Below are positions 10,141-28,491 of a stretch of 64,000 bases of DNA, piece after piece. Made by a program: the position numbers and the translations under genes. The stretch's first letter is position 1. Every line of letters starts with the position of its first letter. Source of the DNA: an uncultured Planctomycetia bacterium (GTDB lineage: Bacteria > Omnitrophota > Gorgyraeia > Duberdicusellales > 4484-171); assembly GCA_964483625.1 (NCBI GenBank), contig CAZABB010000006.1:2129-66128 (forward strand), given 5' to 3'. A model generated the notes under the pieces. That model saw only the letters and a list, made by a program, of their open reading frames with translations, searched no databases and had not been told where the DNA came from.

Positions 10141-10629
10141 TCACACCCACAGATTCTTATCCAGAGAACGGTACTGCACCGCCTCAGCCACATGGGCCGG
10201 GAGGATATCTTTACTTTGAGCCAGATCGGCAATGGTGCGGGAAATTTTGAGGATCTTATCGTAGGCCCGGGCGCTGAATCCGAATTCCCGCGCGGCAGCT
10301 TCAATCAATGTTTTTGCCTGAGAACTCAGGACGCAGTACTTCCTGATCTGCTTATGGTTCATCCGGGCGTTAAAGAACGTGCCGCCGTTATAAGACGCAA
10401 ACCTCTCCCGCTGGATCTTCCGGGCAGCTTCAACTCGTTTTTTTATTCGATAAGAGTTTTCACTCACCACTCCGTCAGCCATAACCGCACTCATCTTAAT
10501 ACTCTGCAGTTCGATGTGAATATCGATCCGGTCCAGGAGCGGACCGGATATTTTATTGCGATACCGCTGGATCTGAGAACCGGAACAGTGGCAGGGTTTG
10601 TGGTGGGAGTTGAAATACCCGCAGGGGCA
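10141..10629 (-). pseudogene. comM: comM/yifB Mg-chelatase-family ATPase, C-terminal fragment (island-interrupted)
   Basis: Minus-strand translation ..GCPCGYFNSHHKPCHCSGSQIQRYRNKISGPLLDRIDIHIEL...FSARAYDKILKISRTIADLAQSKDILPAHVAEAVQYR is the ComM C-terminal third. It lacks an N-terminus and is contiguous in sequence logic with the fragment at 44,566-45,624. Confidence 0.8.
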
Positions 10630-12253
10630 TCCCTTCAGCACACTTCGCAAACTCTTCGGGACTGTCAACGTAGATTGTCATGTCCATCTTGAGCTTCCTC
10701 CTGACTTTCTTGGCGAGGACTTCCTTTACGATTACGGCGAGCCTTGACTTCCTTGCTTCTTCTGAAAGGACTGGCCAGGTCTTTGCGAGGTTCTCAAGCT
10801 CTTCAAACGAGGCTTCGAGGGCGAGTATCCTGTTCTGCGATTCTTCTTTGACGGTCTTTACCTTTAGGAGGCTGTTCCTTACTTCTTCAAGCTGTCTGTT
10901 CACCTTTTCAAATCTCGGGGTGAATGTCTCGTCGTCTATTATCCTGCGTTCGAGCTTGCCGAGGAGTGTTTCTCTTATTTCATCAAGTTCCTTCTCATGC
11001 GCCTCGAGCTGGGCTTTTTCCTGTTTTTTGTTCTTGGTGTCGGGCTTTACCGCTTTCTTGAGTTCATTGATGAGCTTTGCCTTCTCTTTCAGGAATTGCT
11101 TGTTTTCTGAGAGCGCAAGGAGTGTCCCGATGACTATCTCTTCGAGTGGCTCTCCGTCTATGGTCTGTCCTTTGCAGGCTGAGGTTCCTTTCCTGCTTGT
11201 GGTGGCGCACCTGTAATACAGGTATTCCTTCTCCGTCCCGTCTGCATAGGTCTTTGTGTGGGTATAGCCGTACATCTTTCCCCCGCAGTGCCAGCATTTC
11301 AGTATTCCCGACAGGAGATAGGTCTTGTCCGATTTGGTGGGCTTTGATGTCTTCTGCATCAGCAGGTCCTGGACTTCATCGAATTTCTTTTTCGCCACTA
11401 TCGGCTTGTGGTCGCCTTTGACTATCTTCCATTTCTCCCTGTCCACGTGCCTGAGCTTTCCAGAGGAGATGTCAGTCTTTCTTTTGCCGTAGGTTATGTA
11501 TCCGAGATAGAAGGGGTTTGTCAGCATCCGTCTTACTGTCGTTGTTGTCCAGTCGCCCTTCCTTGTCTTGAGTCCCCGGAGATTGAAGCCGTTGACCACT
11601 TTGCGGAGGCTTTTCTCTTTGAGGTAGGAGTCATACATCTGCCTGATTATCTGCGCTTCCTCTTCAAGCAGGTAGAGCTTCTTGTTCTCGGGGGTTTCCC
11701 TGTCCGCTTTGTTCAGGGCTTTTGCTTCGCTTGCTCCTTTTGCCCTGAGGCTTTCGATGAGCTTTTCCCTTGTTATGTATCCAAAGGGGATTATCCCTCC
11801 GTTCCATTTGCCTTTTTCCGCCCTGTAGTGCATGTCAGTTGAGACTCTTTCGGAATCAATTTCTCTCTCAAGCTGTGCCAGTGCCCCGAGGAGGTTGAGC
11901 ATGAATCTTCCCATCGGGCCTTCGGTATTTATGTTTTCGTTGAGGGAGAGGAGCTTGATGTCGTGCTTCTCGAAGAACGATACAAGGAACAAAAGGTCTT
12001 GAAGCGACCTTGTGATCCTGTCAAGCCTTGTGAATACGACGATGTTGAACTTCTTGTCTTCTGCATCCTTCAGCAGAGCTTCCAAAGCCGGCCTGTTCTT
12101 GTCCTTTGCAGATATTCCCTCATCCCTGTAGAGCCTGAATACGGAGAATTCCCTTGCGTTACAGTATTGCTTGAGGCGTTCTTCCTGGGTCTTGAGGGAG
12201 TCACGGTCTATCTGCTGGGTGGTTGATACTCTTATGTAGAGTGCAGCTTTCAC
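10553..12253 (-). CDS. large serine recombinase
   Basis: N-terminal resolvase catalytic domain ALYIRVSTTQQ...S-nucleophile, a recombinase domain and a C-terminal zinc-ribbon/coiled-coil. GTG/ATG start at 12253. The 3' end reads across the attL junction into comM-derived DNA. Confidence 0.85.
   Translation of the reverse strand: MKAALYIRVSTTQQIDRDSLKTQEERLKQYCNAREFSVFRLYRDEGISAKDKNRPALEALLKDAEDKKFNIVVFTRLDRITRSLQDLLFLVSFFEKHDIKLLSLNENINTEGPMGRFMLNLLGALAQLEREIDSERVSTDMHYRAEKGKWNGGIIPFGYITREKLIESLRAKGASEAKALNKADRETPENKKLYLLEEEAQIIRQMYDSYLKEKSLRKVVNGFNLRGLKTRKGDWTTTTVRRMLTNPFYLGYITYGKRKTDISSGKLRHVDREKWKIVKGDHKPIVAKKKFDEVQDLLMQKTSKPTKSDKTYLLSGILKCWHCGGKMYGYTHTKTYADGTEKEYLYYRCATTSRKGTSACKGQTIDGEPLEEIVIGTLLALSENKQFLKEKAKLINELKKAVKPDTKNKKQEKAQLEAHEKELDEIRETLLGKLERRIIDDETFTPRFEKVNRQLEEVRNSLLKVKTVKEESQNRILALEASFEELENLAKTWPVLSEEARKSRLAVIVKEVLAKKVRRKLKMDMTIYVDSPEEFAKCAEGMPLRVFQLPPQTLPLFRFSDPAVSQ
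10609..10645. repeat. island left junction (attL-like): gaaataccc-GCAGGGGCA-tcccttcagc
   Basis: comM reading frame ends at the CPC codons. The plus-strand 9-mer GCAGGGGCA matches GCATGGACA at the right junction (GCAnGGnCA, 7/9). Confidence 0.5.
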
Positions 12254-12384
12254 TTATTGGTTTTCCTTTCTTCGAGGAGCTTTTGGAATACCTTGATATC
12301 GGCTTCAAGCAGGATTTCAAGAACTCTCTGAAGCCTGAACCGCTCCCCGCTACCTTCCTTTATTATCCTGCGTTTCTTCTTCAT
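12250..12384 (-). CDS. small basic protein (44 aa), possible recombination directionality factor
   Basis: MKKKRRIIKEGSGERFRLQRVLEILLEADIKVFQKLLEERKTNK. Its stop overlaps the recombinase start (GTGA). Absent from the ORF track (<60 aa). The RDF role is inference only. Confidence 0.25.
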   Translation of the reverse strand: MKKKRRIIKEGSGERFRLQRVLEILLEADIKVFQKLLEERKTNK

Positions 12385-12476
12385 GATTTGCTTTCCGTAA
12401 CATATTCTACTATGGAACACTATGAAGTCAAGAGGAATGTGCCTGCTGCTTATTTCAAAATTAAATGCAAAATCGG

Positions 12477-12505
12477 TTGCGTTACGGTTAGCGTTTGGAT
12501 ATAAT
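12477..12505 (+). promoter_or_regulatory. sigma70-like promoter (TTGCGT-17-TATAAT)
   Basis: -35 at 12477-12482, 17-nt spacer, -10 at 12500-12505, upstream of the RHH/methyltransferase operon. Confidence 0.4.
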
Positions 12506-12607
12506 AAAATCATATTTATACGATTAATATTATTCATATGATAAATAATATAAATAGGGCAAAAAACACAAAAAGTATAAATACCACTTTCTGCAGGAGT
12601 TAGATAA

Positions 12608-12766
12608 ATGCCAAAAAAAGGGAAATCAAAACAATCCATAGGGATAACTATAGATAAAGAAATCCTTAAGAAATTGGACAATTTCTGCAAGAAAAATTTT
12701 AATGCAAAACGGTCAGGCGTAATAGAGCAGGCCACAAAGAAATTCTTAGAGGAGAATTCAAAATGA
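12608..12766 (+). CDS. ribbon-helix-helix (CopG/Arc-like) DNA-binding protein
   Basis: 52 aa: MPKKGKSKQSIGITIDKEILKKLDNFCKKNFNAKRSGVIEQATKKFLEENSK, a beta-strand then two helices. GGAG RBS. Its stop overlaps the methyltransferase start (ATGA). Missing from the ORF track. Confidence 0.5.
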   Translation: MPKKGKSKQSIGITIDKEILKKLDNFCKKNFNAKRSGVIEQATKKFLEENSK

Positions 12767-14892
12767 GCAAATATGATTTTCTTGATGCACGCAAAGAACT
12801 CGAGCAGACGATAAGTGCTGATTTAAAACGGGCTCTTGAAAAGAGAGGGTTTAGCGTTAAACACAATGGCACTAAAGATTCCTCTGCACCGGGGAATAAA
12901 GCTGACATTGAGCTCTATAATTCGACTTACCATATCACTGTAGAGGTAACGAAGACAACAAAATCCAATGCAGACAGGGAATTTTTGGCAATAAAAGACC
13001 ACTTAGAGCAGATTAAAAATACATACACTTCAAAGAAATGTTTTACTATTTATGTATCTCCTGAGACACATTACCGCATGATGAATGCCATTCGAGATCA
13101 TGATATCTTAAATAGCAAGAAAAACGACCTTAAGATATTGCCTTTTTCTTTCGCTTCTTTTGAGCTCTTTATTACCAAGCTAATTCAATCTCACAAGGAA
13201 CAATACAATAAAACTCTGATTATAGGGTTATTTAATGAATATCTTAATTTTCTGGATGATGAGCGTGTCTTGAGGATATTATATGACAAACTATTTTCCG
13301 ACGACGAGCAACTCAAAAGAGAAATTCAAATTAAAGAGGAAAATAGGCATCAGCAGACCGTTGAGAATTTAGTAAAAGATTTACTCAATCTCGAAAATAA
13401 GTTGAGAGAAGAATTGGGAATTACCCATACTGATGCAATCAGAGATATTATATTTCTGGTCTTCATTAAACTTTATGAAGAAAAAAGAGAATTTGAAGGT
13501 AAAGAGAACAGATTTAAAAGGCACACCTTTCCTAAATTTCAAGAGTATATCAATGATGAGAAATTAGCAGGACATGAATTGTTTAAGTTGATAAAGGAAG
13601 ATAAAGAGCTTAAGTCTGCGAAGGTCTTTACTGATTCTGATTTTCTGTCCGATAAACTGGACGACAATTTCATCCTGAAATTCTATATTGAGCCGTTTGA
13701 GAAATATCACTTTTATACTACTAAAGTAGATGGCCTCGGCGCTGCATATGAGGTTTTGGGTATGCGGGCAGGTAAAGATGTTAAGGCAGGGCAGTTTTTT
13801 ACTCCTGAGAATGTCGTGAGATTTATGGTTCATATGGCAGAACTGGATTATGATGATGTAGTATTAGACCCCGCCTGCGGCACAGCAAGATTCCTTATAT
13901 ATTCTATGTATGACATGATTGAAAAAGTTCGAGGACGAAATCAGGATGATAAAGTCAAGAATATTAAGGTTAAACAATTGTATGGCTCAGATTATGACCC
14001 TAATGTGGCAAAGCTGGCAAAAATGAATATGTATATACACGGAGATGGGAAAACAAACATTATGGACCAAGACGGTCTTTTATTATTTCATTTTGATAAT
14101 CAAATTGATGCAATCCTTACAAATCCTCCTTTGGGTGACCAATCATATCAAAAGACAAGCTATGATGATATTTTTAAGAAGGAACGCATGGCTGTAATTC
14201 CAAAGAATAATGTATCCACAGATAATCTGAAGTCTTTGAGGGACAAGCTCAATGCCTTAAAAGAAAGTTTATTGAAGGCAAAAGAGACACAATCTCAGAA
14301 GAATGTCCAAAGGATAAGCAAGAACATTGAGGAATGTGAAAGGAAAATTGTTAATTTAGAAGAAGACATTGCCCGGGGGACTGTTGAACATAAGGTCTCT
14401 GGCACACAAATGAAAGGTGGCGCCTTATTCATAAACGCTGCGTATCATTATTTAAAGACTGTTAGAAATGAGGATGCTTTACCAGAGTGGCGTGGGGGGA
14501 AGCTGCTTCTTATTTTGGATGAGGGCATTTTGAATACAGAGGATTATTCTAATGTTAGAAATTTTGTAAAGGAGCATTTTTATATTAAGGCGGTGATTTC
14601 TCTTACGAGAGATACCTTCATCCCTATTTCTCATACAAGCACAAAGACCTCGATATTGTATTGTATAAAGAAAGAAGATTTAGATGCAGTCCAGCAAGAA
14701 CCTATCTTTTTTGCGCATGTGGATAAAGTCGGTTTGAATACAAAAGGCAAGGTGTGTGAGAATCATTTATTTAGTGGCAACAAGAAAAATATTCTGAAAA
14801 ATTATATGGAATTCAAGAAGAATGTGTTGGATTCATATGATGGTTTAGCCTTTAATAGAAAAAGATTTGTCGGGAAAAAGAAAAATGTTTGA
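12763..14892 (+). CDS. N6-adenine DNA methyltransferase with N-terminal nuclease-like domain (type IIB/BcgI-A-like or HsdM-like)
   Basis: Motif X/I QFFTPENVVRFMV...DPACGTARFL and motif IV NPPLG (gamma-class amino-MTase). The roughly 200-aa N-terminal domain has a D..E.TK arrangement (ADIELYNSTYHITVEVTK), possibly PD-(D/E)xK-like. Confidence 0.8.
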   Translation: MSKYDFLDARKELEQTISADLKRALEKRGFSVKHNGTKDSSAPGNKADIELYNSTYHITVEVTKTTKSNADREFLAIKDHLEQIKNTYTSKKCFTIYVSPETHYRMMNAIRDHDILNSKKNDLKILPFSFASFELFITKLIQSHKEQYNKTLIIGLFNEYLNFLDDERVLRILYDKLFSDDEQLKREIQIKEENRHQQTVENLVKDLLNLENKLREELGITHTDAIRDIIFLVFIKLYEEKREFEGKENRFKRHTFPKFQEYINDEKLAGHELFKLIKEDKELKSAKVFTDSDFLSDKLDDNFILKFYIEPFEKYHFYTTKVDGLGAAYEVLGMRAGKDVKAGQFFTPENVVRFMVHMAELDYDDVVLDPACGTARFLIYSMYDMIEKVRGRNQDDKVKNIKVKQLYGSDYDPNVAKLAKMNMYIHGDGKTNIMDQDGLLLFHFDNQIDAILTNPPLGDQSYQKTSYDDIFKKERMAVIPKNNVSTDNLKSLRDKLNALKESLLKAKETQSQKNVQRISKNIEECERKIVNLEEDIARGTVEHKVSGTQMKGGALFINAAYHYLKTVRNEDALPEWRGGKLLLILDEGILNTEDYSNVRNFVKEHFYIKAVISLTRDTFIPISHTSTKTSILYCIKKEDLDAVQQEPIFFAHVDKVGLNTKGKVCENHLFSGNKKNILKNYMEFKKNVLDSYDGLAFNRKRFVGKKKNV

Positions 14893-16321
14893 CACTTCTA
14901 TTTACTACAGATTTTCAGAAGAGATTGATGACAGGTTTGACGAAAATTATAATCATTTGCGTTATGATGAAATTAATCGGCTACTCAGTAAAAGCAGATT
15001 CGAGAATATCCTTCCTATAGGCGATAAGCAAGTTCTGAAGGAAATTACCAGTGGCAAAACGCCTCGAGGAATTAAGTATCAGGAAGAAGGAGTGCCATTT
15101 TTAGGAGCTTCAAATATCATCAACGGAGAGGTTGATATAGAAAGTTGCCCTAAGATTGAACAAGAAATGCATGAAGGAGTGCTTAAGTCTTCCAAGGTAA
15201 AAAAGGGAGATATTCTAATAACGATGGCGGGAACAATAGGTCGTTGTGCGATTTATTCTTATGAAGAAGAGGCAAATTGTAATCAAGCCGTAGCAATATT
15301 GCGATTGAATGAAGATATAGTAATCCCCCATTATGTCGTAGAATATCTTGATTCAGTTATTGGTGATCTGTTTTTTCAGAAATTCCAGCATATTTCGAGT
15401 CAGCCTAATATTAATCTTAATGAAATTAAAAGAATTAAGGTAATCCTTCCAGATAAGACGCAACAGAAGACCATACTGAATGAAATAAATAAAATTAGAG
15501 CAGAATTACATAATATAATAAAAATGCGTGAAGATAAGCTCATAGAGATTAAGGTTTCTATAATTGACGAGTTAGAATTTAAGTCTCAAATACCCAAAAC
15601 GTACTTTTTTCATAAAGGGAGAGAATCTACGAACTCCTGTTTTTCCTTTTTTGAAGATTTGGATAGGCTTCACTACTTGTTTAATCAACCCAAAGGTAAA
15701 TTATACGAAGAATTAATTAAAATATTTCATACTGTTGAACTTAATGATGCTTGCAGCGAACCCATTAAACGAGGAGAGCAGCCTGTATATATGGAAGAGG
15801 GGGAAGTGAAAGTCATAAAAACTATAGATTTAAAGAATTCTTATATAGATATGGATAATTGCTTAAGAGTATCACAGGAATTTTATGATGAGAAGGTTAC
15901 TGCTCAAATTTTTAAAAAAGATATTTTAATTGCTTCAACAGGCTATGGGTCTTTAGGCAAGGTAGATATATATGAGGATGATGAACCCGCTATGGTGGAT
16001 GGGCATATTTCTATTTTACGCCTTAACTCAGATTATGACCCCTATTTTATACTATACTTTCTTCGTTCTCCTTTGGGGCAGATACAGTTTGAAAAGTGGT
16101 TCTCTGGTTCTTCTGGGCAAATAGAAATTCAACCCGGAGACTTAGGCAAATTCTTGATTCCCTCTGCATCTGATAATGGAATTTCTTTTGTAAGGCAGTG
16201 CCAGATATCAAAGAAAATATCTGGTAAGTTAAAAGAAGCTAATTTGTTAAGAAGTAAAGCGGATTTAGTCAGAGATAAATTGTCTCAGAATTTTCAAGAA
16301 TTAATATTCCGGAACTTTTAA
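14867..16321 (+). CDS. hsdS: restriction-modification specificity subunit (HsdS-like, two TRDs)
   Basis: Two target-recognition domains separated by a conserved helical spacer (TQQKTILNEINKIRAELHNII), typical of HsdS. The likely start is ATG at 14885, overlapping the MTase stop. Confidence 0.8.
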   Translation: MSGKRKMFDTSIYYRFSEEIDDRFDENYNHLRYDEINRLLSKSRFENILPIGDKQVLKEITSGKTPRGIKYQEEGVPFLGASNIINGEVDIESCPKIEQEMHEGVLKSSKVKKGDILITMAGTIGRCAIYSYEEEANCNQAVAILRLNEDIVIPHYVVEYLDSVIGDLFFQKFQHISSQPNINLNEIKRIKVILPDKTQQKTILNEINKIRAELHNIIKMREDKLIEIKVSIIDELEFKSQIPKTYFFHKGRESTNSCFSFFEDLDRLHYLFNQPKGKLYEELIKIFHTVELNDACSEPIKRGEQPVYMEEGEVKVIKTIDLKNSYIDMDNCLRVSQEFYDEKVTAQIFKKDILIASTGYGSLGKVDIYEDDEPAMVDGHISILRLNSDYDPYFILYFLRSPLGQIQFEKWFSGSSGQIEIQPGDLGKFLIPSASDNGISFVRQCQISKKISGKLKEANLLRSKADLVRDKLSQNFQELIFRNF

Positions 16322-16348
16322 TCCCATTCAGAGGATATATCTTTATCT

Positions 16349-16831
16349 CTATTTCCCCATCAATTCCTCTCTAATCCTTTCCCCTTCCTCAGTCAGTACG
16401 TATAGCCTTCCGTTTTTCTGTTCGGGGTTGAGGCATTTGGCTATGCCTTTGTCTATGAATTCCCTGAGTGCGTCGCATATCCTTGCCACCTTTATGTCGT
16501 CGCTTTCCCCGTCCGGATTGATTTTCGAGAAGAGTTCTTTTTCCGTTATCGGGATGATGATGTGCCTGATTATCTCCTCTCGGAGCTTTTTGCCTTCGTC
16601 GGTCAGCTCATACAGTTTTCTTGCTGTCTTGCCTCCGTTTCTGCTTACCGCTATCCCTTTTTTCTCAAATGCCTTGAGCACGTCTGTCGTGTTGTTGCAG
16701 TTCGCCCTGTTGTAGTAGGGCTTGATTTTCTTCTGTATGAGGCTTGCTGTCATCGGGTAATCCATAGCTTTGATAATCGCTATCCTTCTTGGCCCTTTGA
16801 CAACCCATGCTAACAGCTCTATGCTCACCAT
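16349..16831 (-). CDS. tandem winged-helix DNA-binding protein
   Basis: Two wHTH-like repeats (..KGPRRIAIIKAM..GKTARKLYELTDEGKKL.. and ..ICDALREFIDKGIAKCL..GRLYVLTEEGERI..). Paralogous to ORF 22981..23232. Confidence 0.45.
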   Translation of the reverse strand: MVSIELLAWVVKGPRRIAIIKAMDYPMTASLIQKKIKPYYNRANCNNTTDVLKAFEKKGIAVSRNGGKTARKLYELTDEGKKLREEIIRHIIIPITEKELFSKINPDGESDDIKVARICDALREFIDKGIAKCLNPEQKNGRLYVLTEEGERIREELMGK

Positions 16832-17019
16832 CTTTTTACGTTTATAAATGGAAACGCTGTTTTAAATTTATCACTCATTTTATACTTTTTAGGTAAGTAT
16901 TGATTGAGAATTGGTAACTCTCGTCCGATTTCGGATAAATACAGCATGTTTTTTACAGGTTTACTTAGTTAACTTTTTGAAGCATAAGCTTTAAGAATAA
17001 ACTTCCTTGTGTTTTCGAG

Positions 17020-17400
17020 GTGGTCTGTATGAATGGTGTCTATGTGTGTTATAGCGAAGAGAAGCAGGGCGATTTCTCTGAGGTTGTTGAGATGTCGAAT
17101 GATGAATATCTGATTTGGAGGCATAAGACTTCTATCAGGAGGGAAATGAGGTATCCGGCGAAGGTTATCATTAAGATTTCAAAGAAGGATATCTATTACG
17201 TGGGGGATTTGCTTCTGGTTAAGGAATATGAGGCTTTTAATCCTGAGATTTTCATCAAAGATGAGCGTCATCGTCCTGTTGCTTGGAGTGAGTCTTCCGA
17301 TGATACGAAAAGTGTGCTATTCATTGCTAATTTGCAGGAAGTTCCCGAGCCTGAGGAAGTGAAGGATATTCATCCTCCACGGGGGGTCGCTTATTTTTAG
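17020..17400 (+). CDS. hypothetical protein
   Basis: 126-aa ORF with no recognisable motif. Confidence 0.3.
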   Translation: MVCMNGVYVCYSEEKQGDFSEVVEMSNDEYLIWRHKTSIRREMRYPAKVIIKISKKDIYYVGDLLLVKEYEAFNPEIFIKDERHRPVAWSESSDDTKSVLFIANLQEVPEPEEVKDIHPPRGVAYF

Positions 17401-17642
17401 ATACGGTATTTATCGAAAACTTCTTCTAGGTCTCGATACATATTTGTAAGCCAGTCATTTTTCCATCCGCCTTTATCTGTAAGGAGAAGTTTTTTTGCCA
17501 GGAATTCGTTGCTGACTTCGGATTTGCCGAATATTTTATCGGCGTATTCGAGAGCTTTTTCCATGCCTTGTTGTTTGTAGATCATAAAGATGTTAATGCA
17601 CGCTATTTTGTTTGCTTTGTAGTTGCGTCTAAATCCTGTCAT
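17397..17642 (-). CDS. hypothetical protein
   Basis: 81-aa ORF convergent with the previous one. Confidence 0.3.
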   Translation of the reverse strand: MTGFRRNYKANKIACINIFMIYKQQGMEKALEYADKIFGKSEVSNEFLAKKLLLTDKGGWKNDWLTNMYRDLEEVFDKYRI

Positions 17643-17843
17643 TTATGCCTGACTAGGGGTTCTGTTTAATATATTTTTTGTATATTGGATATTTCGGCAC
17701 ACGCAGACCTTCTTTTCTTAAAGCTTTTCCCCTGAATTGCGGGGTCGGATATGTTTATCCTAAAGCTTTAATGAGAGGTCTGCTATACGTGCCTTTCACT
17801 CAGGCCTCCAAAGACCGCTGAAAAATCTTTGGAGGTGTTTACC

Positions 17844-18155
17844 ATGAGTGAAGTAGTAGAAACTATAGTCAGGCAGTTGTCCTGCCAGGGCCTTGACAAG
17901 CTGACTCTTGCTTGCCTCGGCTTCAAGACGTTTGTGAAGATGGATGATGATACTCTCCGCCTTCACTTCAAAGACAGAAGGGGCGTTGTCAATGTGGATG
18001 TGCATTACAACATCGGGTATGACTCGTACGATGTGACATACCAGCGAATCGACAGGGAGACTTACGAGATTAAGTCGAGAATCAGGAAAGATGTTTTCTT
18101 CGATGAGCTCGCCGGCGTCTTCGACGATTTGTTTGCCATTAAGGGGCTCGCCTGA
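17844..18155 (+). CDS. hypothetical protein
   Basis: GGAGG RBS 8 nt upstream of ATG at 17844. Confidence 0.4.
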   Translation: MSEVVETIVRQLSCQGLDKLTLACLGFKTFVKMDDDTLRLHFKDRRGVVNVDVHYNIGYDSYDVTYQRIDRETYEIKSRIRKDVFFDELAGVFDDLFAIKGLA

Positions 18156-18184
18156 GCCTCTTTATTTTTTTTGGCTCGCTGGTT

Positions 18185-18577
18185 TTATGCCGTAGGGATG
18201 AAGTGTTCTCTTAATGACTGTATGAGCTTGTCTTGGCCTTCTTTTGTTTTGTCCGTTGCTATCAGGTGTATGGAGTTTTCGTTGTAGATGACGCTTGCTG
18301 TGGAGTGCTTGCCTGTGTAGGTTTCGCTTTGCCCCTGCCAGTCTTCGTATCTGTGGCTTTTTAGCCTTTCTTCAGAATGAGGTTTTTCCATTTCCAGCTC
18401 TTTCATTATGCCTGTCAGGATTTTTATGCACGTGAAGGGGCATCCTTTGGGAATGTTTATCTTTGCGTGGGTATCGTTCTTCCTGCTTGTATCAATCTCG
18501 ATTTTTGGTTTTAGCATTTTATCGAGAATACAGAGATAACAAGTCTTATTAATATCTTTGCTATTTTTAGTATTCAA
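18185..18577 (-). CDS. hypothetical protein
   Basis: 130-aa ORF. Confidence 0.35.
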   Translation of the reverse strand: MNTKNSKDINKTCYLCILDKMLKPKIEIDTSRKNDTHAKINIPKGCPFTCIKILTGIMKELEMEKPHSEERLKSHRYEDWQGQSETYTGKHSTASVIYNENSIHLIATDKTKEGQDKLIQSLREHFIPTA

Positions 18578-18645
18578 GAATGGTGACAGGAGAGTTGCGG
18601 CACTTTTCGTCAGGTTTAAATAGAAAAGAACAGCTTTGATATTGC

Positions 18646-18858
18646 ATGGCAGAAGGACTGATTGAAGGGGTGCTCGTAACTTTTACAGCCGTGATGATAT
18701 TAATGCTTATGGGCATTACTTATTCTGGTGTTCAGCAGTACTCTAATCCTGCTGTCCATGCTGGCATACTCGGCGGTATCCTTTCTATCCTTTTGCTTAT
18801 CTGTGCTGGCTCTTTGTTATCAATGGAGAATTATGTCTATAATGGAGGAATCCTCTGA
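18646..18858 (+). CDS. small membrane protein
   Basis: Two predicted TM helices. Confidence 0.3.
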   Translation: MAEGLIEGVLVTFTAVMILMLMGITYSGVQQYSNPAVHAGILGGILSILLLICAGSLLSMENYVYNGGIL

Positions 18859-18947
18859 TTATTATTTTACCTTTTCTTTGAGTGTTCTTTTCCCAGACCT
18901 ATCCTTTGAGTGCAAATCTTTTATATCCTTCCCGTTACCATTCTTTC

Positions 18948-19136
18948 ATGGTTAAAAGCAGGCTGATTAATGTGCGGTTGTCGGGGAGACAGTATGATCT
19001 CCTCATCAACCGTATGGAGTGCATGGGCTACCTTAACATGAGCCAGTTCATCAGGGATTGCGCTCTTCGGGATGACCTTGCCACCCTCAAGCTTCTGCGG
19101 GACATTCACGAGAGGGTGGTCGGCAGTGCCTCTTAA
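18948..19136 (+). CDS. MobC-like mobilisation (relaxosome accessory) protein
   Basis: VRLSGRQYDLLINRMECMGYLNMSQFIRDCAL matches the MobC family pattern (VRLTxxExxxLxxxAxxxGxSxSxYIRxxAL). Confidence 0.45.
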   Translation: MVKSRLINVRLSGRQYDLLINRMECMGYLNMSQFIRDCALRDDLATLKLLRDIHERVVGSAS

Positions 19137-20146
19137 CCCTTCATCAGTGCTTGTATCTCGGTTAATTCTTGTCTTTGCCTGCGGTATTCTTCTTCGGTTA
19201 TCCTGCCGTTACGGAATTCGTTGAATAGCTGGATGTATTGCCCTGCAAATATTCCGTTTGTGTCTGCTGGGTGCTGATTGGGTGGAGTCCGGGTGCATGG
19301 ATTATCCCCATTCTCTTGGTGCGTTGGCCGTGCCTCGGCGTATGGGTCTATGTGATCCATTGCCGAAGTCAGGTTCTTCTTGCCAAGCTGTGTATATGTC
19401 CTCGCCGTCAGCTCGACTTTCTCGTGCCTCATCAGCCTTCTTGCGGTCTCGAGATGTGTGCCCGAATTGATGAGCATTGAGCAGAAGAATTTTCTGAAGC
19501 TGTGGAAGCCGTATTTCTTTGCCTTGTAGCCGTTCTCTTTGATGTATAGGGTCTCAAGAAGTCCCGATTTTTGGGTGGCCTTCTCGAGCTCCTTTGACAG
19601 CGTGGTTACTGCTATCGGTTTCTCCGCCGTCTGGTGCGAGGGCAGGAGATACTTGCTGTCTCTCGTGTAGTGTGTCCATTTCTTCAGGAGCGGTATCAGG
19701 GACTTCGGGAAATACACGTCCTGGGGCACTCCTTTCTTCGTGACTATTAGCCTTATCCTGCATTCGTCGAAGTCTATGTTTTCTTTGAGGATTTCGCTTG
19801 TCTCTTCCCGACGGGTTCCCGTCACGCATGATACAAGGCTTGCCATCATGCAGTTGAGGTTATCCATGTGCCTGAACAGAGGGGGGAGGTCTTTTGGTCT
19901 GAACGGCTCCTTGCCTCTGTTCTTCTGAATCCATCTTTTGGGTCTCGGGTTGATTAGGCAGCCTTTTTCCCTGAATGCCCTAATCAGGAATTTCTTTTGA
20001 CGCTGCGTGATTCCTCCCGTCAGTATCTGCTCGTAAAGTTCCTCCGCTGTCAGATTGACCGTTTTCTGTATGTCCTTTTTCCCGTGTTGCTCGGGCTGTT
20101 TATTTGTTTGTTTATTTGGCTGTTTATCGGTTTGCATATTCGCCAC
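19133..20146 (-). CDS. tyrosine recombinase, catalytic-domain ORF (probably frameshifted gene)
   Basis: Catalytic residues in GTRREE...HSFRKFF...LMRHEKVELTARTYTQL (R..HxxR..Y). Low-complexity N-terminus KQPNKQTNKQPEQ encoded by a gtttgtttattt tandem repeat. Confidence 0.7.
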   Translation of the reverse strand: MANMQTDKQPNKQTNKQPEQHGKKDIQKTVNLTAEELYEQILTGGITQRQKKFLIRAFREKGCLINPRPKRWIQKNRGKEPFRPKDLPPLFRHMDNLNCMMASLVSCVTGTRREETSEILKENIDFDECRIRLIVTKKGVPQDVYFPKSLIPLLKKWTHYTRDSKYLLPSHQTAEKPIAVTTLSKELEKATQKSGLLETLYIKENGYKAKKYGFHSFRKFFCSMLINSGTHLETARRLMRHEKVELTARTYTQLGKKNLTSAMDHIDPYAEARPTHQENGDNPCTRTPPNQHPADTNGIFAGQYIQLFNEFRNGRITEEEYRRQRQELTEIQALMKG

Positions 20147-20534
20147 CTCTCAGGAAATCGTTCTGTGCGATTTTCTCTACATAGCCGATTATCTCGGCCC
20201 GAAGCTCCTCGGCCATGACCTCGTTCGGCCTGTTGCGTTGCAGATTCTCAGAAAAAGCCTCAGTCATGGACAGCCTTTTCTCCTGGATTTCCTGCTGAAG
20301 ATACAGGGGGAGATTAAGGACTCTATACCATGTATGGGCTGTGCTTGGCTTGATGTTGTGCCTTAGAAGCAGGGAGTTGATAATCTGCTCCTTCTCGCTC
20401 ATCTCCGATATTTTCTCTCGTCTCATCCTCGCAATCCGTTTCAGGTGATATCTTATTTCTTCCCGGGTTATTTTCGGATACATTGCCTGGACGATTTCCT
20501 TCACGTATCTTATCCGTTCAAATACGTCTATCAT
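20124..20534 (-). CDS. integrase N-terminal SAM-like/core-binding domain ORF (upstream piece of split integrase)
   Basis: IKPSTAHTWYRVLNLPLYLQQ fits the Phage_int_SAM pattern (S..T...Y..L..F). It overlaps the catalytic ORF by 23 nt in a different frame. Confidence 0.45.
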   Translation of the reverse strand: MIDVFERIRYVKEIVQAMYPKITREEIRYHLKRIARMRREKISEMSEKEQIINSLLLRHNIKPSTAHTWYRVLNLPLYLQQEIQEKRLSMTEAFSENLQRNRPNEVMAEELRAEIIGYVEKIAQNDFLRGGEYANR

Positions 20535-20808
20535 GGTTACAACCTCGCTTTACTTTACTCATAGAATTCGATAGCCATTCTTAAAATTTGTAAAGTAAAT
20601 GTAAAGCAAGCCCGTTTAACACCAGAAACAGTCAAATAAGAGCCATACTACAGCGGCATTTATGTATTGGATATGTTTTTGCTGTTTCTGCCGTTTTAAG
20701 CCTTGTATTGGCTGTTTTGGGGCTTTTCGGCAATCGTTTCTATGGTGTATTTTAGAAGTTTGGATAGGTTTTTAAGTCTTTCTTTTCATTCATGTATTGG
20801 ATAGGGTT

Positions 20809-21258
20809 TTACCCTGTCGGATTGAGAATTTTCTCCGCCTTTTCGAGAAGCTTTGTGATCTCTTTTTTGAGAGACACCATCCTTCCGCATATCTTCTCCT
20901 GAATTTCGCCTGTCCGCCTTAGATTGCTTATCTGGTCGTTCATGGCCTGCTGGGTTGCCTTGATGATGTTGGTCTGGATTGAGATATTGTTGAGGTTTCG
21001 GGCGTAATCCTCTTTGTCCTGCGGTCTTATTTTCTTGTGCTCCTCGAGATAGTAGTTGAGGCGGTCGAGATTCTTTTCTATCAGCTCAGCATAATACTTT
21101 GTGCGGTATAGGTCTGTTACTGTTGCGTTCTGGGCTTTTGCGAACGAGTCGATGTTTCGCTTCTGTTCCTCGATTCCGTTCGACATCTTTTTCAGGAGAG
21201 CCTTTATGTCCGGCATGGGAAAAATAAAAGAAAAAGGAGATAAAAACATTTCACTCAA
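20809..21258 (-). CDS. hypothetical coiled-coil protein
   Basis: 149-aa ORF. Confidence 0.35.
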   Translation of the reverse strand: MSEMFLSPFSFIFPMPDIKALLKKMSNGIEEQKRNIDSFAKAQNATVTDLYRTKYYAELIEKNLDRLNYYLEEHKKIRPQDKEDYARNLNNISIQTNIIKATQQAMNDQISNLRRTGEIQEKICGRMVSLKKEITKLLEKAEKILNPTG

Positions 21259-21351
21259 ATATTGCTTCTATTTCGAGTAGTCTTTGAGTGTCTTTTTTAT
21301 TGTTTTAGTCTTTTTTGGGGGTATAATTTAGGTTGTTGAAAGGGAATCATT

Positions 21352-21921
21352 ATGTATAAAAAAATCTTGTTTCTTGGCAAGAAAACATACAAAAAAGACT
21401 ATTCTAAGGCAATTGTTTTAAAAGCAATTAAAGACAAATATTCTTCTATCACAGAACTGCCTGACTCCAAGGCGGCTTACGAGAAGTGCAAAGTATCTCA
21501 CTTTGACATAATCATAGTTGATATGAAGATGCCTGGCCAGGAAGAAAAGCAATGGCTGGAAAAGATTCGCCTTGAGCATGAGGATATTCCGATAGTCATG
21601 GTTGAAGAATTCTCAGGGCAAGCCAAGTTTGTTGCAAAAGAAGCATTTGTCGAATTAGCTTTTTCCGGAGCTGATACCGAAAAGAATAAAAAGAAGGATA
21701 ACAATAATAGAGATATGGATAAGGAATTAGAGGCTATGTTGGAGAAAATACCTATTGAGCAGAGGCAGGAAGCTGAACAGCAGATTAGAAGCATGTATGA
21801 AGAACTTTATAAAATTCGTGAAATAGGTGACAGAATCCACAGTATTTATGAGCATACTCATGCTCAGGTAGAGGCTACTATGGAGAAAGCGAAGGAATAC
21901 GGTTATGTCCCAAGGCCCTAA
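21352..21921 (+). CDS. receiver-like (degenerate CheY-like) domain protein
   Basis: DIIIVDMKMPGQEE...IPIVMV pattern, C-terminal coiled coil. Confidence 0.4.
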   Translation: MYKKILFLGKKTYKKDYSKAIVLKAIKDKYSSITELPDSKAAYEKCKVSHFDIIIVDMKMPGQEEKQWLEKIRLEHEDIPIVMVEEFSGQAKFVAKEAFVELAFSGADTEKNKKKDNNNRDMDKELEAMLEKIPIEQRQEAEQQIRSMYEELYKIREIGDRIHSIYEHTHAQVEATMEKAKEYGYVPRP

Positions 21922-22258
21922 AATCCCATTAACTTCTTATGGTTTTTTTACAGATGCTTTTTTAAAACCTGTTAGGGAGAGTCTCATTCGTATTGAGGCA
22001 GATTTTGAGCATCAGGCAAAAGATATTTCCAGGATAGACAATTTATGCAATGATATGATGAAAGACATAAGCACTTTGAAAGCTGATGTTGAAGGGTTAA
22101 AATCTGAGTGTAAACATGCAAAAGAGGATGTTCTTCAAAAGCTTATTATTATGATTCAGAACCGTAAGATTAGTTTGCAGGATAATCAGATAAAAGATTT
22201 AATTGCACATTTCTCTGCATTGCTCTCCGATAAGCAGGACAATCCAGATAAAAAATAA
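21905..22258 (+). CDS. hypothetical coiled-coil protein
   Basis: Overlaps the upstream gene by 17 nt on the same strand. Confidence 0.3.
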   Translation: MSQGPKIPLTSYGFFTDAFLKPVRESLIRIEADFEHQAKDISRIDNLCNDMMKDISTLKADVEGLKSECKHAKEDVLQKLIIMIQNRKISLQDNQIKDLIAHFSALLSDKQDNPDKK

Positions 22259-22440
22259 ATAAAAAGTTATCACTCATTTATTGCTTTTGCTGTGAGTAAT
22301 CTTTGAGTGTCTTTTTGTAGGCTATGCCGTCGAGTGCGTCGTAATAGTCGCTTCTGTAGTTCTCTATGAAGTGTCCAAGAAGGTCTTTGATCTCTTTGAC
22401 GTCATTCGAGATTTTAAGCACTGCCTGCCTGCATCGTTCC

Positions 22441-22680
22441 TCAAGCGAGTCCTGCGTCATCTTGAATCCTCCTCAGAGGTTTAAGATTAGAAAATCCGCC
22501 TTTTGGATTTTCTTTATCTGAGCCACCTTTTTGAAGAATTGCCTGCAAGTAGTTGGCGTGAACAAAGTCTGTCCTTATGGTCTCTATGATGAGCCAGCTT
22601 CCGTCTTTGCTTGCCCGAATCTTCTTTCTGAAGACAGGCTGCTTCTCCTCGAATTCCTGCTTCTGTTTTTCTTTTGCCAT
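22441..22680 (-). CDS. hypothetical small protein
   Basis: 79-aa ORF. Confidence 0.25.
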   Translation of the reverse strand: MAKEKQKQEFEEKQPVFRKKIRASKDGSWLIIETIRTDFVHANYLQAILQKGGSDKENPKGGFSNLKPLRRIQDDAGLA

Positions 22681-22980
22681 TTTATTCCTCCACTATCACC
22701 CTTACTCAGACGTAGTGATGGACACCCTTAAATGGCTTTCACCCGATATTTACTTACGGGAAAAGTAAATGTCTGTGGCTTTTTGGAACACTGCAAACAA
22801 TGATTATCTTTTTCTCGCCCTCAAGAAAGAGAATTTTGTCTTTATCTGCCAGCCTCAGAGTCCTTTTTACTTCTGGGATGGTTGTTTTATACGTGATTGT
22901 TTCCGGTTTATCCATTCTTAAAGCTCTGTTATTGTTCTGTTATTTACTTTATATAAATGTTTTCATTAAATCAGCTAATC

Positions 22981-23232
22981 ATGGACGCTGACGAATTGCT
23001 CGGTTACGTGCTTTCAAGCAAGAGAAGGAAGCAGGTTTTAAAAGAGCTGCGGAAGGGCCCGAAGAGGCCGATGGAGCTGTGCAAAAAGCTGAAGCTCGAC
23101 ACAGGCAACACGGCGAGACTTCTCTTCCAGCTCGAAAAGAACGGGCTCATTAAGTGCATCACGCCCGACAAGAAAAGCTGGCGGGTCTACAAGATAACAG
23201 ACACGGGAGAAAAGATACTGAAGAGTCTGTGA
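22981..23232 (+). CDS. winged-helix DNA-binding protein
   Basis: KGPKRPMELCKKL...TARLLFQLEKNGLIKCI...WRVYKITDTGEKIL, paralogous to the 16349..16831 protein. Start at ATG 22981. Confidence 0.45.
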   Translation: MDADELLGYVLSSKRRKQVLKELRKGPKRPMELCKKLKLDTGNTARLLFQLEKNGLIKCITPDKKSWRVYKITDTGEKILKSL

Positions 23233-23272
23233 TCCTTGCAGGAAATTCTTGATTAGAAAAGATGAGGGGGCA

Positions 23273-23545
23273 TTACTGCCGCCCTCTCTGGAATTGACAG
23301 CCTTCGCATCTTGAAGGGTCTTTGCATGCCTGGCAGACCTTTGTTGCGTCTATGTGCTTCGTTAGTTCTGCAAAGCACCACTCCATCGCATAAGTCATTG
23401 GTTTGCCGAGCATCCACGCAATCCTTCTCAGTGTTGAGCTGTCGTCGTTGCTTAGTTCGGGTGTGTAGGCCATTGCTTCTCCTTTCTCATTTGTGACAGA
23501 AGGCGTTTTCCTTTCCTGCTGTCGAAGGCCACGAATTCGAGACAC
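23273..23545 (-). CDS. hypothetical protein
   Basis: 90-aa ORF. Confidence 0.3.
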   Translation of the reverse strand: MSRIRGLRQQERKTPSVTNEKGEAMAYTPELSNDDSSTLRRIAWMLGKPMTYAMEWCFAELTKHIDATKVCQACKDPSRCEGCQFQRGRQ

Positions 23546-23837
23546 TTGTCGGGAATTGCTTTTCTGAATTCCCTGAGCCTGTCATCGACGGTGTAGCCTC
23601 TGAACGTCGGTAGCTGTATAGCCATCGTTTACCCCCTTTCTGTTATGTGAGTATAAGACGGGCAGTTTTTTCCGTCATGCCCTGGACGTTTCCCCTTACC
23701 CCTGATAGTGGTAGTAGTGGTGGTGTTTTTGGCTTTTCCCCGCTGTTGTCCTCAATCCTTTAACAGAATGAGTTAGATAGGTTTTTCACCTTCATAGGGG
23801 CCGGTTTAAAGGTTGTCCGGCAACTTCTCTGTGTGTT

Positions 23838-24164
23838 TTACCAGCATTGTGCTTCGGCAATGAGAGATACGTCTTTGGCTGGCTTTGGCTCCCAGTATAG
23901 GTCTCTGTCGACCTCAAGAAACTTGACCCGCAGGTCTGAAAGTTCTTTGAGGCTGAAGTTTCCCCATTCGGCCATTTCGAGGTCGCCGTTGAGCACAGCA
24001 AACCCGAAGAATATCTCGTCTTCGAGGCAATACTCGCAGGCATACCAGTCGCATCCGCCGATGAAAAAGTGCATATAGATCACTTTCTCCTTCAGGGGAG
24101 TGCTTTCGCCTGAATACATTCGCGGGAGCTTTGCAAGTTCTTCCGCTGTGGGCTTATTCCACAT
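23838..24164 (-). CDS. DUF2958-like protein (conjugative-element associated)
   Basis: MHFFIGGCDWYACEY...E motif resembles the DUF2958 family, common on ICEs and plasmids (from memory). Confidence 0.45.
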   Translation of the reverse strand: MWNKPTAEELAKLPRMYSGESTPLKEKVIYMHFFIGGCDWYACEYCLEDEIFFGFAVLNGDLEMAEWGNFSLKELSDLRVKFLEVDRDLYWEPKPAKDVSLIAEAQCW

Positions 24165-24466
24165 AGGTTTTCTCCTTTCTCCGGGACACTTACCCAGATT
24201 TCTCCGTCAAGGTCTACCCAGTCCAGCACTTCCTCAGTGCCATTCATCTGGTCTTTGCGAATCCACACAATTCACCTCCTTTCGTAGCTTTGCGTTTCTG
24301 CACAAAATTGTTTTGATTAAGGAGTGAATACGGGTGAGGTAGAAAAAGATTTCACTCAAGAATTACTCATGGAAAGAGAATGATTGAAGAGGTTTGCACT
24401 CAGGAAGCACTTTTTGTTTAAGAGTATTCGTAGTCTGGGATATCTTTCTGAGGAGAAAATGAGGGA

Positions 24467-24940
24467 TTAATTTTTTGTCGGAATTAGTTTTTGAGAAATG
24501 GTTTTGATTGAGCATTGCTTGTTCTTGTTGTCCCAAATAGCGCAGAATTCTTTTATGCATGGGGCGTGTTGCCAGACGTATGTTCCTCCGCCGTAACCGC
24601 CGATATGAGTTTCTTGGCCTATTGATATTTGTGTGAATGGACACATTTCGCCTTTTAGGTATGTGGGGGCGAGTTCTTCCTGACTGAGGGTTTTGTCTTC
24701 TCTGTGTTTTTCTTCTTCTTTGAGTATTGCCAGAATGGAGTTTTTGTTTTCTTTACAGAATTCGTCCATGCTTTTTTTGCCATCCTTTGGCAGGGTGAAG
24801 GACTTTCCGTTAATGAAGCGAAATATATATTTGCCTTTTTTGTATTGTAGGGTGTGATGAAGCAGTCCACATTTTGTGCATATTCCTGTTAGTGGGATTG
24901 TTTTTTCCCCGCAGAGTATACAGGGTTTTCCTATATTCAT
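24467..24940 (-). CDS. zinc-ribbon hypothetical protein
   Basis: N-terminal CxxC...CxxC (CILCGEK...CTKCG). Confidence 0.4.
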   Translation of the reverse strand: MNIGKPCILCGEKTIPLTGICTKCGLLHHTLQYKKGKYIFRFINGKSFTLPKDGKKSMDEFCKENKNSILAILKEEEKHREDKTLSQEELAPTYLKGEMCPFTQISIGQETHIGGYGGGTYVWQHAPCIKEFCAIWDNKNKQCSIKTISQKLIPTKN

Positions 24941-25038
24941 TTTTTCCCTCAGGTCATTTTAGGCTTTTTGCATGGTTGCGTTTTTAAAATATAAATAACT
25001 ATCGTTATTTATGGGTATCCCCACAGTTTTAAGAATGT

Positions 25039-25392
25039 TCATGAAGCTTTGAAGTATATCGTCGGGCAGAGGTATTTTGTTCCTTGCTGGTTGTTTCTGT
25101 GATTGTATTTTTCTTTCCTGAGCAGGATTATGGGTGCTCGTATCAGAATTTGGGGTTTTCCGTCCTTGTCATCTTTTTCTGCTTTCTTCGCTCCCCATAG
25201 TCTTATCGCTGTGCTTGTTGTCGAAAGAGTGCTTTGCCTTATGTCTTTTGCGAGCCTGCTTATCGGTGTCCATTGGACATATTTCGGGAGTGCCTTGATT
25301 ATCTTTATCGCTCTTGCTTCCTCTGAGCGTTCAAGGTGGAAGAAGCTTTCTTCATTGTGGAAGCTTACGAGCCTCAGTTTTTCTCTTGCCAT
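25039..25392 (-). CDS. hypothetical protein
   Basis: 117-aa ORF abutting the ATPase gene. Confidence 0.35.
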   Translation of the reverse strand: MAREKLRLVSFHNEESFFHLERSEEARAIKIIKALPKYVQWTPISRLAKDIRQSTLSTTSTAIRLWGAKKAEKDDKDGKPQILIRAPIILLRKEKYNHRNNQQGTKYLCPTIYFKAS

Positions 25393-26774: not shown

Positions 26775-26776
26775 TT

Positions 26777-27241
26777 TTAACCCAGAATCTTCCTGTCCTG
26801 TTTTAGTTCCTGTCTTTTGTGCCACTCGTTTATGAAGTAGGTGATGGGTTCGTTGAGGTCTTTCCATGTTTCATGCCTGTTTTCGAGCATCCGCATTTCC
26901 AGGCTGTTCTTTTCTTTTTCGAGCATGGATTTCCTTCTCTCGATGTTCATGTTGTAGCCTGTCCTGAAGCCTGAAAGCTCGCCGATCTGTCCAGATAGCT
27001 CGTTCCATTTTGATTCAAGAGCATAGGAAGAAGCCCGATAAAGTTTAAGCCTGTAAGCCACGGAAAGGGCGGTATTCACGACCTTATCGAGAAGCTTGCC
27101 GGAGTCCTGTTCAAGGATTTCCTCGATAGAAAAGCCTGAAGCAGGGCTTCTTTCGGGCTTGCAGGGCTTGCCAGATGAATAGAGATACTGCTGGAAGAAC
27201 GGCGTGTAATAAGCAACTGGTTTATAGTTATTGAAGTTCAT
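26777..27241 (-). CDS. hypothetical protein
   Basis: 154-aa ORF immediately upstream of the ATPase on the same strand. Confidence 0.4.
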   Translation of the reverse strand: MNFNNYKPVAYYTPFFQQYLYSSGKPCKPERSPASGFSIEEILEQDSGKLLDKVVNTALSVAYRLKLYRASSYALESKWNELSGQIGELSGFRTGYNMNIERRKSMLEKEKNSLEMRMLENRHETWKDLNEPITYFINEWHKRQELKQDRKILG

Positions 27242-27517
27242 AGTAATTGATTAGTGAGGACAAGATTGTTTTTAGATTTATCACCCAAAGATTATGTTTA
27301 GTTAGAGTAGCTTTTCCGTTTCGGCCAGAGCTTGCGCTCTTTTCCCCGAAACGGACTGGAAACGGAGGCAGTGCAAAAATATCCCCTTGGGGCCTGTCGG
27401 CATGAGGCATCAAGGTCATTTTCGCTCTTTTTTTCTCTGCTGGATACTTTCTGAACGGATTTTGTCGTGAAATTTTAAGAATTTTTGAATTTTTTTTGAT
27501 TTTGTCATATAATGCCC

Positions 27518-28410: not shown

Positions 28411-28491
28411 TGATATCGAGTAAAAAATCTTATTAGCTTAGATTTTAGGTAGCACGCACTACCAGCGATAATTTTATCGCGCCTTAACCAA

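Follow-up and report, generated by a model that had tools for sequence, protein, structure and literature searches.

Serine integrases are prized in genome engineering as unidirectional enzymes whose reversal normally needs a separate directionality factor. Elements with a large serine recombinase (LSR) inside a gene of the Mg-chelatase/comM family are already known from the sr1WO prophages of Wolbachia, which have the LSR at one element end, the gene halves on the flanks, a short shared core, and attB and attP attachment sites obtained by joining the flanks (PMC9203015). We found the same arrangement in a stretch of 64,000 nucleotides (the window; contig CAZABB010000006.1 of assembly GCA_964483625.1, positions 2,129 to 66,128), in which the comM gene of an Omnitrophota genome is split at its Cys-Pro-Cys codons by an island. 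Unlike the sr1WO prophages, which are described with attP at the element ends and without mention of a recombinase gene spanning it (PMC9203015), the element here is a non-phage defence island, its LSR open reading frame (ORF) spans the predicted attP, and a C-terminal tandem helix-turn-helix (HTH) module belongs to the spanning frame. We put at roughly 80% the probability that the element encodes an LSR core-linker-HTH gene with its own attP, a dyad-symmetric site of about 50 bp, in the linker-encoding DNA, and that integration cuts this gene and precise excision restores it. This explanation draws together the junctions, the continuity of the reading frame, purifying selection, unsplit homologues with palindromes in their linkers, and a second reconstructed island.

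On the plus strand, comM DNA (ttgaaataccc) at 10610-10620 is followed by the 9-mer GCAGGGGCA at 10621-10629 and then by the island; on the minus strand this 9-mer reads TGCCCCTGC and forms the Cys-Pro-Cys codons of ComM (..LKG-CPC-GYFNSHHKPCHC..). Its partner GCATGGACA occurs once on the plus strand, at 44566-44574, exactly at the end of the comM 5' part, where the minus strand reads ..AACCCC TGTCC-ATG-CGT AAC ACA AAG... The two copies agree at 7 of 9 positions, as an earlier sequence-only reading of this DNA had stated, or at 8 of 10 counting the following G (with the register fixed, 7/9 or better is expected by chance with a probability of about 0.001), and both junctions have TGYCCNTGCG in common. 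The comM 3' part starts at 10629 with CPC-GYFNSHHKPCHCSG.. and ends at 10141, and joining the two host fragments (10141..10627 and 44575..45624) gives a ComM of 512 aa that is 83% identical to the intact protein P0004, the other matches, all YifB/ComM proteins of Candidatus Omnitrophota, reaching at most 67%. The ChlI, Mg_chelatase and Mg_chelatase_C domains are spread over both fragments, and the joined length agrees with the family size of about 510 aa. Intact comM genes of relatives at loci L004 and L005 (83% and 67% aa identity, respectively) have a single copy of the 9-mer, TGTCCCTGC, with ..GCGATGAAYCCC before it and GGBTATTTCA.. after it; in the window, these flanks stand from 44575 upwards and from 10620 downwards, respectively. 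A single 9-mer whose flanks come from opposite junctions of the window means that about 33.9 kb was inserted inside the Cys-Pro-Cys codons. Moreover, the neighbours of intact comM in L005, namely a UvrD helicase, a 115-aa ORF and a response regulator, are the same genes that flank the window's halves. The uninterrupted genes of L004 and L005 thereby define attB, as the sequence-only reading had hoped of such an alignment, and the junction between comM DNA, 9-mer and island to which it had drawn attention is a genuine recombinant att site made of the P arm, the crossover and the comM 3' arm. Its name for that junction, 'attL-like', is a matter of labels, the order P-O-B' being attR in the usual LSR convention.

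By its predicted domain architecture, the ORF at this junction is a complete large serine recombinase: Pfam finds Resolvase (PF00239, residues 3-150, E 9e-40), Recombinase (PF07508, 197-298) and Zn_ribbon_recom (PF13408, 313-378), the motif YIRVS10T of the Ser nucleophile region is present, the PDB sequence matches are the TP901-1, SPbeta and A118 integrases, and the AlphaFold model has a long coiled-coil hairpin at residues 385-495. No stop codon precedes the crossover in this ORF, and the same is true of the relatives L001 and L002. Its TAA lies at 10553-10555, 22 codons past the 9-mer and 24 past the inferred crossover TG; the last 22-24 codons are host-derived, as had been proposed, and would change on excision. 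Two related LSRs (P0002 and P0003, 76-78% identical), which adjoin a comM 3' part in other organisms, also read through, and their tails (in L001 and L002) are ..MPMRIFW-stop and ..MSVRVLY-stop against ..MPLRVFQLPPQTLPLFRFSDPAVSQ-stop in the window. Tail conservation among homologous elements, the second check that the earlier reading had suggested, extends to only 3-5 residues set by conserved comM codons (PLRVFQ.. against PMRIFW-stop and SVRVLY-stop), and since the tails differ between hosts, the tail is host-derived and not conserved. Tail lengths are 4-5 aa in L001 and L002, 24 aa in the window and up to more than 90 residues elsewhere, and P0129 has a long tail whose first residues, MPLRIF, resemble comM read-through. 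In P0138, a protein of 669 aa from another lineage, the LSR ORF crosses into comM in frame, Resolvase, Recombinase and Zn_ribbon being followed by the ComM C-terminal part (..TVPHG-CPCGWVGDP.., Mg_chelatase, Mg_chelatase_C). The varied lengths and the in-frame ComM C-terminus of P0138 suggest that the tail as such is without a role. In addition, the candidate promoter of the LSR gene falls in the sole upstream non-coding stretch conserved with L002 (window 12380-12432).

The opposite end of the island carries ORF191, for which Pfam reports HTH_31, HTH_3 and HTH_19 in two stretches and AlphaFold a predicted local distance difference test (pLDDT) score of 81.5. Its register relative to the 9-mer is the register of the LSR ORF at the other junction, and with the island ends joined, the LSR runs in frame into the HTH module in an open frame of 734 aa (542 LSR and 192 HTH codons). 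Since the element has no LSR stop codon, a circular form could encode only the fusion, and precise excision would rebuild the 734-aa LSR-HTH ORF. Excision would thus do more than remove the host tail: it would put in its place a 192-residue tandem-HTH module from the other end of the island. AlphaFold models the fusion with a mean pLDDT of 79, and the low-confidence stretch between core and HTH consists of residues 540-555, which are the att-encoded residues and lie between the LSR C-terminal beta-hairpin plus helix and a strand with the two HTH modules. We found that the part of the HTH ORF next to the linker is its most constrained part. Over codons 10-49, the 40 codons between the att arm and an internal Met, comparison of the window with L008, L009 and L010 gave proportions of synonymous differences (pS) of 0.52-0.59 and of nonsynonymous differences (pN) of 0.06-0.09 (dN/dS 0.05-0.10), and pS was below pN in the other two frames, which places purifying selection in the LSR-continuous frame only; codons 10-49 are therefore translated. 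Database HTH proteins found by profile search (P0274, P0227 and P0275-P0277) start at the internal Met, residue 50 in the window. A first protein search, with the LSR C-terminus plus ORF191 as query, returned three LSRs and no HTH protein because the entries start at that Met; scans with the ORF191 protein found no match in viral or metagenome contigs, and the genome scan matched L003 only.

The attP reconstructed from the window, gagtttgcgaagtgtgctgaaggga-TG-tccatgcgtaacacaaagcaaac (junction ..GCTGAAGGGA-TG-TCCATGCGTAACAC..), is symmetric at 15 of 24 positions about the first TG of the 9-mer, the background probability of a dyad of at least 15/24 in the window being 2e-4, and the attP reconstructed from L002 and L009 has the same centre with 17/24. 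In L006, where the gene is unsplit, the linker-encoding DNA cagtttgagttatgtgacgcacgga-CA-tccatgcggcacagaaacaaaac (..gtgacgcacgga-CA-tccatgcggcac..) also reaches 17/24, is the top dyad of the entire 14.5-kb locus, is collinear with the window's reconstructed attP, and has TCCATGCG right of centre, as at the window's right junction; moreover, S-M-R is encoded at the crossover in both the L006 protein (P0124) and the window. The linker of the unsplit gene in L011 (P0211, in a phage-like lysogeny module) holds the palindrome gttttgctcctgcaagga-CA-tgggtgcgggagcaaaac, and the best dyad of L007 is also within the linker. The reconstructed attB junction reads ..ATGAACCCC-TG-CCCCTGCGGGTAT.., and the attB arms show little symmetry. 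The predicted attP accordingly looks as an LSR attP should, an imperfect dyad of about 40-50 bp about a non-palindromic dinucleotide common to attB, and TG occurs at the two junctions as well as in the uninterrupted comM genes of relatives.

Most likely, the crossover is the first TG of the 9-mer. We also considered a crossover at CC (positions 4-5), which fits the relatives' attB TGTCCCTGC without substitution, and ranked it below the first TG because each of the four attP sites, reconstructed in two cases and unsplit in the other two, has its centre of symmetry at TG/CA, because the host comM identity in L012 ends directly after the first TG (..AATCCC TG Ttccaccc..), and because of the position of TCCATGCG in L006; the frame argument is unaffected by this choice. 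The 9-mer that the sequence-only reading had matched between the junctions is real at both; it is no overlap core in the style of tyrosine recombinases, exchange probably involving the first TG only, and the 7/9 match comes from the likeness of the attP and attB half-sites in their innermost bases. An elevated variation among L008-L010 at positions 3 and 6 of the 9-mer at first suggested that these bases are host-derived, but relaxed constraint near the centre explains it equally well. In gene orientation, the central dinucleotide is CA in the unsplit sites (L006:3963 and L011:7815) and TG in the window and in L002/L009, and the lineages of L006 and L011 would enter a TG-centred attB the other way round with respect to the target gene.

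The second island was reconstructed from L002 (LSR side) and L009 (HTH side), both of run SRR29278612, whose ends join into an in-frame ORF of 725 aa with 78% identity to the window in the LSR and 71% in the HTH part. The right junctions of L008, L009 and L010 are built alike: a comM 5' part cut short is followed by the 9-mer and by an HTH ORF that shares its strand and keeps the window's register. The host ComM 5' parts of these three loci and the window are only 48-59% identical pairwise, the att arms being near-identical among elements despite this distance; related insertions at the same codons of such hosts are indirect evidence for integration activity of the LSR. The truncated ComM ORF ends in an identical element-encoded tail and stop in the window, L008, L009 and L010 hosts (VTQSK.TDGKH..SP.SLN-stop), and the DNA of this tail, 44506-44574 in the window, also encodes, in a different frame, the first ~21 codons of the HTH module.

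Further, proteins that combine LSR and HTH in one ORF turn up repeatedly in different lineages, with identities of 26-47%. The top match to the 734-aa fusion in an exhaustive HMMER search was P0124, a protein of 702 aa with 47% identity that aligned in one stretch over query residues 1-705, spanning the junction, and its gene is mid-contig in L006 (15 kb) with non-comM genes on either side. P0142, P0145, P0149 and P0211 (26-30% identical) likewise have Resolvase, Recombinase, Zn_ribbon and a C-terminal HTH in one ORF. A tblastn search of curated phages with P0211 and of plasmids with the 734-aa fusion gave no record in which 80% or more of the query was covered. In L012 (1962-5480), a comM-inserted element carries an intact LSR-HTH gene (P0145, 699 aa) 310 nt downstream of the truncated comM 5' part, with attP upstream of the LSR-HTH gene and with a second LSR-like gene and two ParB/RepB genes in the same locus. 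The intact gene of L012 implies that the HTH module is a normal part of these enzymes and that an attP in the linker is one variant.

On our reading, integration at the central TG cuts the LSR-HTH gene in two. The LSR core (residues 1-542) retains its own promoter-like site and gains a short arbitrary host tail and a comM-derived stop, and the HTH module (192 codons) lands 34 kb off, behind the comM 5' part and on the same strand, without a promoter of its own. The island would still be able to excise; the 734-aa form would be made from the free circle and carry out integration, with the HTH module probably serving as an accessory DNA-binding or autoregulatory domain. After integration, the element's own promoter would yield only the truncated LSR, and the HTH module would be either silent or expressed via comM transcription from ATG, TTG or GTG at 9-mer positions 6-8. 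The integrated and excised states would then have different recombinase isoforms, a built-in state marker. It is also conceivable, and in our judgement doubtful, that the split is a natural switch in which topology, not a separately regulated recombination directionality factor, sets the direction of recombination. For such a switch, the full-length LSR-HTH protein, made from the circle only, would be the integration-competent or self-repressing form, the integrated element would make only the truncated LSR, and the detached HTH module, under the host comM promoter, would act in trans as a regulator or directionality factor.

Several points weigh against an LSR-HTH gene split and restored at its own attP. 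The crossover is placed within TGYCCNTGCG by symmetry, CC or the second TG being less probable positions. The excised form was sought with the exact attP pattern TTTGCNAAGTGTGCNGARRGNATGNCCNTGCGNAACACAAAGCAAAC, which had 0 matches in metagenome and viral contigs. L006, with its unsplit gene, is a linear 15-kb contig that may represent an integrated or a free form, and the intact LSR-HTH gene beside comM in L012 means that a split is not needed for LSR-HTH function in a chromosome. Frame continuity lies within att arms that are already constrained, and conservation of the frame alone is weak evidence. As to the role of the HTH module, Foldseek and PDB sequence searches return only generic Cro/CI-type repressors. 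Finally, an NTG codon stands at 9-mer positions 6-8 in all five right junctions, and the HTH module could be translated separately.

This last point also favours the strongest of the alternatives, which we nevertheless regard as improbable, namely an incidental read-through, in which an LSR core and an independent HTH regulator would be the functional products and the 734-aa ORF would be a tolerated by-product of packing attP between two genes. The core of 542 aa is a complete LSR in itself, host tails of any length seem to be tolerated (4-5 aa, 24 aa, the long tail of P0129, the in-frame ComM C-terminus of P0138), and the right junctions have ATG, GTG, TTG, ATG and GTG (window 44567-44569, L003:1665-1667, L008-L010), a start codon within the att core in 5/5; the three recombinase-side junctions have CTG, GTG and ATG at the same positions, numbers too small for significance. 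However, the element has no LSR stop and its circle encodes only the fusion, one-ORF LSR-HTH proteins occur in several lineages, and the 40 linker-proximal codons are the most constrained of the HTH ORF. Moreover, no promoter-like site ahead of the HTH module was found within the element by a consensus scan, the sole such site upstream of ORF191 in the integrated state being that of comM (45677..45648), and no Shine-Dalgarno motif was found before the ORF191 NTG, such a motif preceding only about half of the window's genes.

Still less probable is an immobile fossil island, the split gene of which would be a relic without a present role. The circular form was absent from the contigs searched, the window lacks the 292-310-aa ORF and the HTH_17 gene that stand upstream of the LSR in L001 and L002, and the two tyrosine recombinases in the island suggest later insertions. 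Against this, both gene halves are intact and under purifying selection, the att arms are near-identical across hosts with 48-59% ComM identity, and L003 has island segments 96-98% identical to those of the window in another context; together these indicate recent transfer. The outcome by which the sequence-only reading would have fallen, a 9-mer that is plain comM DNA at either junction and an island boundary somewhere else, has a negligible probability: the 9-mer does encode the conserved ComM Cys-Pro-Cys, yet it is single in L004/L005, its left flank occurs only at 44575 and above and its right flank only at 10620 and below, and similarity to the relatives' islands begins exactly at the 9-mer, which puts the island boundaries inside it. 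The split LSR-HTH gene is the best explanation, and the features that it involves are collected in Table 1.

Table 1. Coordinates of the split comM gene, the predicted att sites and the two halves of the proposed recombinase-HTH gene in the window
Feature	Position	Strand	Remarks
comM 3' part (host)	10141..10627	-	after-crossover codons (..CPCGYFNSHHKPCHC..) to comM stop; Mg_chelatase C-terminal end + Mg_chelatase_C
LSR ORF, integrated state	10553..12253	-	566 aa; residues 1-542 element-encoded
Host-encoded LSR tail	10553..10627	-	24 codons (PLRVFQLPPQTLPLFRFSDPAVSQ) + TAA, comM DNA in non-comM frame
Left 9-mer copy	10621..10629	-	minus-strand TGCCCCTGC, Cys-Pro-Cys codons
Inferred crossover dinucleotide, left	10628..10629	-	TG (minus strand); CA on plus strand
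P arm of predicted attP	10630..10654	-	minus-strand GAGTTTGCGAAGTGTGCTGAAGGGA; last element-encoded LSR codons (..EFAKCAEG-M); conserved in L001, L002
Island	10630..44572	.	33,943 bp between two TG copies
Promoter-like site upstream of LSR gene	12404..12431	-	consensus scan, TTGACT-16-TAGAAT; candidate only
ORF191, tandem XRE-type HTH	43994..44569	-	191 codons; ATG inside right 9-mer
P' arm of predicted attP	44548..44572	-	minus-strand TCCATGCGTAACACAAAGCAAACCG; first HTH-module codons; conserved in L003, L008, L009, L010
Right 9-mer copy	44566..44574	-	minus-strand TGTCCATGC
Inferred crossover dinucleotide, right	44573..44574	-	TG (minus strand); CA on plus strand
comM 5' part (host)	44575..45624	-	Pfam ChlI + Mg_chelatase; ORF enters island, stop at 44506
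Promoter-like site upstream of comM	45648..45677	-	consensus scan, TTGTCA-18-TACAAT; candidate only

The island has a lower G+C content in parts, and Pfam scans of its cargo found restriction-modification, McrBC and further defence-type genes. The cargo loci of the window are 12763-16321, 25374-26867, 35752-39415 and 40296-41561, and the defence-like cargo comprises an N6-methylase that has an AlwI-like nuclease region and is accompanied by an S subunit, a HerA-like ATPase, McrBC together with an AAA_5 ATPase, and a nuclease-like protein of the metallo-beta-lactamase/RMMBL type. Relatives with the same LSR/HTH ends carry other cargo, which is BREX-like in L001, HsdM and SduA_C in L002, and an OLD-family nuclease in L009. 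The two tyrosine recombinase genes of the island are at 19133-20146 (minus strand) and 31912-32769 (plus strand), the latter in a block that also holds a response-regulator-like gene (32972-33838) and an APH-type kinase-like gene (33801-34769). This block is common to L003 and L009 at 80-98% nucleotide identity and may belong to the backbone of the element or be an element nested in it.

Immediately upstream of the LSR, L001 (8692-10000) and L002 (4011-5322) have an ORF of 292-310 aa without an assigned family, and both have a 58-aa HTH_17 (excisionase-like) gene on the strand opposite to the LSR. The same place in the window (12250-12760) holds just a 44-codon ORF, followed by cargo, with neither the 292-310-aa ORF nor the HTH_17 gene, and a candidate directionality factor may have been lost from this island. 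At L003:1391-1720 (CAZPXQ010000013.1), the HTH end of an island 96-98% identical to that of the window is joined not to comM but to the palindrome gtaacgcacgga-TG-cccgtgcggaacac. The left flank there has, on the opposite strand and pointing outwards from the junction, a DUF4143 ATPase and an XRE gene that shares 33% identity over 72 aa with residues 6-77 of ORF191. L003 looks like two HTH-bearing element ends head to head, either a tandem/inverted relative or a product of att-site recombination.

If the split LSR-HTH gene works as proposed, integration changes the recombinase polypeptide itself, and a DNA-binding domain is detached and placed under a host promoter, which would be a new way of sensing or recording state, and a serine-recombinase counterpart of the SSV-type integrases and of integration-dependent immunity. 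Full-text searches of the open-access literature found no description of an attP inside an LSR ORF. The arrangement also has a practical bearing on annotation: the two halves are shortened or overlooked by gene callers, every entry found having the HTH ORF called from the internal Met, and att-site predictors that assume an attP outside the recombinase ORF would misplace it. In addition, defence islands use the Cys-Pro-Cys codons of comM for insertion in hosts with only about half of the residues of their ComM 5' parts in common.

In the SSV-type 'suicidal' tyrosine integrases, the site also lies in the integrase ORF, integration partitions the gene and excision restores it (PMC7253208; PMC8371274). 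Those enzymes are tyrosine recombinases destroyed by the split, whereas the window's enzyme is a serine recombinase whose catalytic, recombinase, zinc-ribbon and coiled-coil parts stay intact, only the C-terminal HTH being detached. The attP within the ORF and the partition are thus found here, and the tyrosine fold and the inactivation are not, which makes the window element an analogue of the SSV-type integrases and not a member. Integration-dependent immunity of mycobacteriophages (PMC8092301) is similar in having attP in a coding sequence, C-termini that depend on the state, a host stop near the junction, and the state used as information. There, however, a repressor is split by a tyrosine integrase and a degradation tag of 20-35 residues is removed, whereas here the recombinase itself is split and loses a folded DNA-binding module of 190 residues. 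The host tails (..AVSQ, ..RIFW, ..RVLY) are not ssrA-like and no ssrA-like tag is present in either form; with neither an attP in a repressor nor the removal of a tag, the likeness is again one of analogy only. Engineered fusions of an integrase with its recombination directionality factor (PMC5737554; the SPbeta Int-RDF fusion employed in cryo-EM, PDB 9dxd, PMC11722253) have in common with the predicted LSR-HTH protein a C-terminal LSR fusion, which can alter the choice of att pair. Those fusions are artificial and contain a known directionality factor, whereas the fusion encoded by the excised island would be natural, dependent on the state of the element and made with an XRE-type HTH partner.

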